Shown here: positions 40,777-40,900 of the stretch, piece by piece
Layout: the number at the start of each line of letters is the position of its first letter
Numbering within the stretch: the stretch's first letter is position 1
From: Escherichia coli
GTDB lineage: Bacteria > Pseudomonadota > Gammaproteobacteria > Enterobacterales > Enterobacteriaceae
NCBI RefSeq assembly: GCF_022846255.1
Contig: NZ_AP025682.1
Reading direction: 5' to 3' (one strand)
Length of the DNA stretch: 64,000 nt
Notes under the pieces: generated by a model
The model's database searches: none
What the model was told of the DNA's origin: nothing
The model's input: only the letters and a program-made list of their open reading frames with translations
Translations under genes and position numbers: made by a program

Positions 40777-40804
40777 TTGTTGCCCTCGTCGGGAGCAGAG
40801 AATT

Positions 40805-40877
40805 GCCGGATAAGACGCGTAAGCGTCGCATCAGGCGCTGATTGCCGGATGCGGCGTGAACGCCTTATCCGGCCTAC
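40805..40877. repeat. REP/BIME units in aceA-aceK spacer
   Basis: gccggataagacgcgtaagcgtcgcatcaggcg and ttgccggatgcggcgtgaacgccttatccggcctac. Confidence 0.75.
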
Positions 40878-40900
40878 AGTCAGCAACGTTTATCGGTTGC

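Follow-up and report, generated by a model that had tools for sequence, protein, structure and literature searches.

Introduction

REPs affect mRNA decay, and the intercistronic REPs of malE-malF and hisJ-hisQ were reportedly described as mRNA stabilisers by Higgins in 1982 and Newbury in 1987. For the aceBAK operon, Klumpp et al. are said to have found REPs in the aceA-aceK region in 1988, in the work that gave the aceK sequence, and to have proposed that they take part in the downshift of aceK expression; masking of the ribosome-binding site (RBS) by the REPs was reportedly among their suggestions. The subject was reportedly followed up in 1993, when Chung et al. are said to have ascribed the downshift to inefficient translation and premature termination. 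Published fusion experiments reportedly point to weak aceK translation and to termination inside aceK as causes. Transcription attenuation associated with BIMEs was reportedly proposed by Espeli et al. in 2001. The REPs between aceA and aceK, their site and the downshift hypothesis have thus been known since 1988, and nothing described here is of a new kind. Full-text literature searches for REPs together with aceA or aceK turned up no modern paper dealing directly with the aceA-aceK spacer.

The roughly 300-fold difference between aceA and aceK, with AceK being needed in catalytic amounts, is a textbook question that has largely been answered. PMC5435950 gives a product ratio of 0.3:1:0.003 and names premature termination within aceK among its causes, citing Chung et al. 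(1993); it also describes a signal for aceK far weaker than the one for aceA. A REP is defined as an imperfect palindrome of 30-40 nt with GTAG at its 5' end, and a BIME as a REP combined with an inverted REP (PMC3333891). In the same classification, BIME-1 consists of z1 and y units separated by a long and conserved L linker, in which an IHF site is frequent, and occurs in single copy, BIME-2 consists of z2 and y units with a short linker in tandem copies of strain-variable number, and atypical BIMEs are chimeras of both. Finally, ribosome stalling by a REP requires that it lies at most 15 nt from the stop codon, as PMC12306157 relates from Liang, Rudd and Deutscher (2015).

Here, the aceA-aceK spacer was analysed in a 64,000-nt stretch of Escherichia coli DNA (hereafter the window). 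An earlier note on this DNA, made from its letters, had placed two REP units in a 124-bp spacer inside a single operon and had considered them to fit the very low AceK to AceA ratio. The general effect of REPs on mRNA decay, on which that reading was built, is accepted here; the REP definitions are those of PMC3333891.

The aceBAK operon and the aceA-aceK spacer

The NCBIfam matches identified aceB (malate synthase A, 42235-43854), aceA (isocitrate lyase, 40901-42220, 803 bits) and aceK (isocitrate dehydrogenase kinase/phosphatase, 39052-40776, 939 bits), all on the minus strand, which is the reading direction of the operon and of the REPs. These gene calls bear out the claim that the REPs are intercistronic within one operon. 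The operon is preceded by metA (MetA, 44105-45034), while iclR (IclR, 38151-39035, plus strand) and metH (MetH, 34328-38026, minus strand), likewise assigned by NCBIfam, lie downstream of aceK. The genes aceK and iclR converge with their stop codons 16 bp apart (39036-39051), and arpA is absent between them, unlike in K-12. In the Clermont scheme, phylogroups B2 and F are marked by the absence of arpA.

Regarding the relatives of this strain, a 701-bp query spanning the aceA-aceK junction found its best DNA match among complete genomes at only 98.1% identity, and identical AceK proteins exist; the matches listed in the AceK protein search came only from E. coli and Shigella, with 99-100% identity. 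The metH gene is 99.3% identical to its best matches, which are human isolates including UPEC129 and W224N (cerebrospinal fluid).

According to the ORF boundaries, the NCBIfam identities and the sequence, the intercistronic spacer (40777-40900, minus strand) measures exactly 124 bp, from the TAA that ends aceA (40903-40901) to the aceK ATG (40776-40774). After the TAA follow a small hairpin, TGACT, REP1, a gap of 7 nt, REP2, AAT and the aceK leader TCTCTGCTCCCGACGAGGGCAACAA. The small hairpin (A-GCAAC-cgataaac-GTTGC-T, 40882-40901, minus strand), which was recognised by folding and allele comparison, has the general form AGCAAC-N7/8-GTTGCT with 6 bp and begins on the final base of the aceA stop codon. 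Its stem is invariant in all REP-bearing Escherichia alleles and its loops differ (CGATAAAC, AACAACC, CTACAAAC, CGACAATC); it is missing from the REP-less allele described below. The aceK leader (40777-40800, minus strand) carries a weak Shine-Dalgarno (SD) sequence, GAGGG, 7 nt before the ATG, as judged from sequence and predicted fold. An out-of-frame ORF of 121 aa (40466-40831, minus strand), which begins within REP2 and overlaps the aceK start, is almost certainly spurious.

Structure and class of the two REP units

The y-REP and z-REP patterns were fitted to each unit separately, with 100 shuffles of the window serving as control. REP1 (GTAGGCCGGATAAGGCGTTCACGCCGCATCCGGCA in mRNA sense, 40843-40877, minus strand) is a canonical y-type REP matching the y-REP pattern in 35 of 35 positions. 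It starts with GTAG (40877-40874), followed by stem arms at 40873-40861 and 40856-40844 around the loop TTCA, and reads GTAGGCCGGATAAGGCG-TTCA-CGCCGCATCCGGCA in mRNA sense; as inverted repeat I3 it was recorded with 14-nt arms (40844-40857 and 40860-40873) that are 86% complementary. The linker AATCAGC (40837-40843, minus strand) separates the REP stems by 7 nt according to the sequence.

REP2 (GCCTGATGCGACGCTTACGCGTCTTATCCGGC in mRNA sense, 40805-40836, minus strand) is a z-type inverted REP (iREP) of chimeric composition. Its core GCCTGATGCGACGC-TTAC-GCGTCTTATC is followed by CGGCAAT where AGGCCTAC would be expected, so that the unit reads GCCTGATGCGACGC-TTAC-GCGTCTTATCCGGC in full. Since it ends with CCGGCAAT instead of GGCCTAC, REP2 lacks CTAC, the complement of GTAG, and is not a complete REP. 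At its 3' end, …CTTATC|CGGCAAT-TCTCTGC, REP2 carries a y-REP tail, and the sequence comparison revealed that the 124-bp allele corresponds to the four-REP, 215-bp allele reduced to its first and last units. Judged by this junction, REP2 is a deletion chimera. Of the two REPs claimed for the spacer, REP1 is therefore canonical, whereas REP2 is a truncated chimera without CTAC. Both units are imperfect palindromes in the 30-40 nt range, the hairpin fold of REP2 containing an internal mismatch, and the GTAG typical of E. coli REPs is present in REP1 (40877-40874) with no CTAC counterpart in REP2.

Several lines of evidence identify the units as REPs. The y-REP pattern was matched in 35 of 35 positions also at 8148, 12376 and 20286 of the 64-kb window, the copies at 12376 and 20286 being letter-for-letter identical to REP1; with up to 3 mismatches, there were five matches in the window and none in the 100 shuffles. 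The REP2 core likewise occurs four times in the window (three copies besides REP2) and was absent from all 100 shuffles. The Rfam model RF02564 (naRNA4, a REP-pair model) matched at 40804-40874 on the minus strand with 74.1 bits, above the gathering threshold of 59.5 (E = 3e-12 to 2.9e-11 in two runs); the plus strand scored 49.5 bits, below gathering. For the RNA of the 124-nt spacer, the predicted folding energy is -51.6 kcal/mol (z = -4.0), a value that none of 200 shuffles reached. The Rfam score above gathering, the identical copies in the window, their absence from shuffles and the stable fold together confirm the REP identity, and the placement of two REP units at 40777-40900 in the earlier note is upheld by the first three of these. 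In the predicted folds, the units form two separate hairpins or join into a single long REP1:REP2 hairpin, the centroid structure and the minimum free energy fold in longer context both pairing REP1 with REP2. An earlier REP pattern with a 5-nt loop and a CCTAC tail found three other REPs and missed the aceA-aceK locus, because the loop is 4 nt long here and REP2 lacks CTAC.

When tested against the definitions in PMC3333891, the element is by its sequence an atypical BIME, and as such an ordinary member of the REP family of E. coli. It combines a GTAG-first REP1 with an inverted REP2 across a 7-nt linker, as expected for a BIME. It is not a BIME-1, because the 7-nt linker leaves no room for L or an IHF site and because up to six REPs occur at this site in other strains. 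The short linker and the strain-variable tandem number are features of BIME-2, and the z unit has the long form. This long form of REP2 resembles, as we assume, z1 rather than z2. The short linker, the long-form z unit and the missing CTAC explain the label atypical. Compared with atypical BIMEs and BIME-2, the locus is alike in the combination of REP and inverted REP, the short linker, the tandem amplification and the strain-variable copy number; it differs from a canonical BIME-2 in that its z unit is of the long form, probably not z2, and lacks CTAC.

The 64-kb window harbours other y/z REP units and BIMEs at 5429-5463, 8148-8270, 12376-12499 and 20247-20320; in all four the y REP is GTAG-first on the minus strand, and three exceed the naRNA4 gathering threshold. 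Among the other Rfam matches in the window are STnc430 (20032-20181, plus strand), which adjoins a REP pair, a lysine riboswitch (22220-22416, plus strand), a TPP riboswitch (62621-62721, plus strand) and a complete rrn operon (45759-50775, minus strand) with 5S, 23S, StyR-44, a tRNA (49076-49148) and 16S.

REP number varies between E. coli strains

The 701-bp query spanning the spacer was compared with 5,426 complete E. coli genomes, 5,425 of which were matched over varying lengths. Containing the REPs, this query was placed at a median of 38 positions per genome, in keeping with a repeat of many genomic copies that lies outside genes. The spacer-length classes were determined in a systematic sample of 60 of the 5,425 genomes. 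Most frequent was the 280-bp spacer with five REPs (27 of 60; BL21(DE3)), followed by 182/183 bp with three REPs (12 of 60; K-12 and O157:H7). The 124-bp allele of the window with two REPs and a REP-less spacer of 48 bp were each found in seven genomes; the latter is not related in sequence to the others and contains a hairpin of its own, CGCCCCTTTCCGTAAGGCGAGGGGCG, as well as AAGGAG as a strong SD. Rarer were the classes of 215 bp with four REPs (3 of 60; Nissle 1917), 85 bp with one REP (2 of 60) and 313 bp with six REPs (1 of 60). In the sixtieth genome, that of strain Z1323HEC0300, the IS3-family element IS1397 interrupts the loop of the only aceA-aceK REP (L018:3301-4820), with repeated ATTT flanks and 1.4 kb within the operon.

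Exact counts among all 5,426 genomes gave 718 (13%) with the REP-less allele, for example strain PK8275 (L004:601-648), and 887 with the chimeric junction of the even classes that is also present in REP2. The alleles differ by steps of about 91-98 bp, corresponding to one REP pair. How many tandem BIMEs a locus carries is known to differ between strains (PMC3333891), and such steps are therefore the expected behaviour of tandem BIMEs. The aceA-aceK site is a copy-number-variable REP array that expands and contracts by REP pairs and is also an IS1397 target; neither the allele series nor the insertion departs from what is expected of BIMEs. The comparison of the spacer across strains, which the earlier note had suggested as a check, thus weakened its reading: with zero to six REPs, 718 of 5,426 genomes without any and one IS1397 insertion, REPs are not required at this position.

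A direct comparison with K-12 illustrates this variation. Both alleles have the locus, the repeat family, REP1, the post-stop hairpin and the aceK leader in common. K-12 has three REPs (y, z, y) in 182 bp and ends with a y unit, whereas the window has two in 124 bp, the last one being a chimera of a z iREP with the tail of a y REP. The REP-less allele has its own hairpin of -19 kcal/mol, and its SD, AAGGAG, is much stronger than the GAGGG of the window. The mean predicted probability of the aceK SD being unpaired is 0.33 in the window and 0.63 in the REP-less allele. It may be that the AceK dose differs between lineages via the SD of the REP-less allele, as far as such predicted folds can indicate.

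The spacer in other genera

The comparison across genera covered only 11 loci, which were collected by means of a degenerate motif describing the N-terminus of AceK; this search missed E. coli and Salmonella, although K-12 fits the motif. Within the genus, Escherichia whittamii has six REPs in the spacer and two Escherichia sp. loci have two and four. The spacers of Pseudocitrobacter, Pluralibacter and the Enterobacteriaceae strain RIT691 (L007-L010) contain a different REP class, GCCCGGTGGCGC…CTTACCGGGCCTAC, which stands alone or, in some loci, beside an E. coli-type GTAGGCCGGA… unit. Going by these sequences, REPs seem to have landed repeatedly in the aceA-aceK spacer.

In three Atlantibacter species and the Enterobacteriaceae strain RIT714 the spacers are short, measuring 52 and 48 bp, and contain a unique GC-rich hairpin with a folding energy of -20 to -23 kcal/mol; every REP-less spacer that we examined holds its own GC-rich hairpin with -19 to -23 kcal/mol; the hairpin of RIT714 folds no better than shuffled sequences (z = +0.24). 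Atlantibacter and K-12 are alignable in the SD-proximal segment (CCTGATG…), hence the REPs occupy the position of the Atlantibacter hairpin. All spacers examined, from five genera and the REP-less E. coli allele, thus contain a GC-rich stem-loop, either REP or non-REP. This would be consistent with a stem-loop of some kind being maintained between aceA and aceK.

mRNA 3' ends and an intrinsic terminator inside aceK

Published Term-seq data for K-12 list two 3' ends in this part of the operon: one at 4218571 (score 1,115), 4 nt past the last REP stem, and one at 4218963 (score 56,453) inside aceK (PMC7815308 supplement). The internal end is about 50 times stronger than the REP-associated one (PMC7815308 supplement), and this 50:1 relation is not a ratio of transcript fates, because Term-seq reports steady-state abundance and the Hfq-stabilised sRNA AceK-int inflates the internal peak. 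The REP-associated end is weak and appeared in only one growth condition out of three (PMC7815308 supplement). To judge from file position and text, the condition that lists both ends is probably LB at OD 2.0. The sequence context of 4218571 in K-12 is …CATCCGGCAATT|CTCTGCTCCT, reading on as CTCTGC, and this flank is common to the alleles including that of the window. By homology, a REP-protected mRNA 3' end (…CCGGCAATT|CTCTGC) is predicted for the 124-bp allele near position 40801 of the minus strand.

The top terminator-like site in the region 39000-44200 is not located in the spacer, it lies within aceK. It consists of a stem at 40438-40417, CCGCTCGCTTACTCCCGAGCGG then CTTTTTATCT, and the entire intrinsic terminator (CCGCTCG-cttactcc-CGAGCGG followed by CTTTTTAT, 40409-40438, minus strand) covers nt 339-368 of aceK, as indicated by the terminator scan, its conservation and the K-12 3' end. 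The sequence overlaps the coding sequence and encodes 10 residues. In K-12, the sRNA AceK-int extends over 4,218,879-4,218,963, and the internal aceK terminator forms its 3' end (PMC8175672); the equivalent in the window is 40409-40493 on the minus strand. For the 3' end at 4218963, intrinsic termination has been given as the cause, the terminator score being 5.9 (PMC7815308). The codons of the terminator stem are identical in all E. coli alleles, the REP-less one included, and also in Pseudocitrobacter, Pluralibacter, RIT691 and RIT714, with a variable loop; Atlantibacter, in which R is replaced by Q, no longer has the hairpin. The terminator within aceK is hence a better-supported cause of low aceK expression than the REPs.

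Three ways in which the REPs could themselves act on expression were rejected. Within 40777-40900 there is no terminator-like site with a U-tract, REP2 being followed by AAUUCUCUGCUCCC, and with no U-tract behind either REP they do not qualify as intrinsic terminators. Regarding translation-regulating REPs, the GTAG of REP1 begins 24 nt and its stem 27 nt after the aceA stop codon, a distance of 24-27 nt that exceeds the 15-nt limit. RBS masking by the REPs as main mechanism was dismissed as well, since accessibility in the predicted folds shows no trend with REP number. In the predicted folds of the window, the aceK SD and AUG show no pairing with the REPs; their partners are leader sequence and the first codons of aceK.

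Discussion

Among the described systems, the aceA-aceK REPs can be compared with the mRNA stabilisers of malE-malF and hisJ-hisQ. They are alike in lying between a strong upstream and a weak downstream cistron, and a 3' end is found just past the REP in K-12; they differ in that a separate, stronger terminator inside aceK accounts for most 3' ends. With the translation-regulating REPs they share the position downstream of a stop codon and differ by lying beyond 15 nt (PMC12306157).

We consider it likely that the atypical BIME acts as a modest exonuclease barrier that protects the aceBA mRNA, and that the main causes of low AceK are located elsewhere, namely in the terminator inside aceK (nt 339-368) and in weak aceK translation initiation. 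The REPs in the aceBAK transcript would fold into very stable stem-loops, which would block 3'-to-5' exonucleases, and transcripts that are cleaved or terminated downstream would be trimmed to a few nt past the last REP. Such trimming would leave protected aceBA mRNA behind and make a modest addition to the large excess of aceA over aceK. The REP-associated 3' end of K-12 would accordingly stem from exonuclease blockage rather than termination, and the same is to be expected for the two-REP allele; the K-12 end could also be a decay intermediate of no consequence. Because REP number ranges from zero to six and an IS insertion is tolerated, any role of the REPs must be dispensable and is probably small.

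The REP range and the tolerated insertion fit the absence of a selected function equally well, and a neutral status of the REPs is a serious rival, albeit one that we hold to be unlikely. The repeats would then be mere passengers, dispersed and changed in size by recombination and by the REP-associated transposase, and tolerated with no selected effect on aceBAK. The variation from zero to six REPs, with 13% of the genomes lacking them, the 1.4-kb IS1397 inside a REP of one strain, the deletion chimera REP2 without CTAC and the copy-number variation that is general to tandem BIMEs (PMC3333891) all suit such passengers, which would less readily account for the K-12 3' end that follows the last REP by 4 nt, pointing to an element that acts on RNA, or for the stable GC-rich stem-loop in every spacer examined from five genera and the REP-less E. 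coli. It is very improbable that the REPs are the principal cause of the roughly 300-fold downshift, whether by polarity, attenuation at the BIME or masking of the aceK RBS. The very stable structure directly upstream of aceK invites this view, BIME transcription attenuation and RBS masking have reportedly been proposed, and the aceK initiation region is partly paired in the predicted folds (SD unpaired probability 0.33 versus 0.63 in the REP-less allele). Yet the REPs are absent from 718 genomes and number one to six in the rest, the SD and AUG pair locally and not with the REPs in these folds, neither REP is followed by a U-tract, and the dominant K-12 3' end lies within aceK and not in the spacer. 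Premature termination in aceK is also stated in PMC5435950, citing Chung (1993). The PMC7815308 supplement lists no Rho-termination region at the spacer coordinates, which says little about Rho-dependent attenuation because the operon is poorly expressed in those data.

Still less credible, to the point of being negligible, is a role of the REP pair as nucleoid-associated, HU-binding RNA of the naRNA4 type or as a site on the DNA that gyrase, Pol I or IHF would bind. The RF02564 score of 74.1 bits, above gathering on the minus strand, would speak for it, and the aceA-aceK pair resembles naRNA4 of REP325 in the sequence and structure of its y+z pair; but any y+z pair will score on this model because it was built on REP pairs. 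The 64-kb window alone contains four y+z pairs, the IHF site of BIME-1 would not fit into the 7-nt linker, and, in difference to naRNA4, the aceA-aceK pair is part of an operon transcript and is known here from its sequence. At the other end, the exonuclease barrier could be extended to a conserved stem-loop module that sets the 3' boundary of long-lived aceBA mRNA, in which REPs would have replaced an ancestral hairpin repeatedly and in which the alleles and their SD would tune AceK and growth on acetate between lineages of E. coli, a quite unlikely scenario at present. The ancestral GC-rich hairpin would, on the same speculative footing, survive in Atlantibacter, RIT714 and 13% of E. coli, with other genera using other REP classes.

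Returning to the modest exonuclease barrier, the fit between the REPs and the low AceK to AceA ratio asserted by the earlier note survives in part. A small contribution is plausible because K-12 has a real 3' end located 4 nt beyond its last REP; the REPs as main cause are weakened by their variation from zero to six and by the terminator within aceK. The REP pair between aceA and aceK matters little and is at most a minor cause of low AceK. The natural series of zero to six REPs, together with the IS1397 insertion, provides ready-made variants for quantifying the contribution of an intercistronic REP. It also calls for caution, since the REPs are visually striking and yet vary from zero to six between strains, while the conserved element of this operon is a terminator hidden in the aceK coding sequence.
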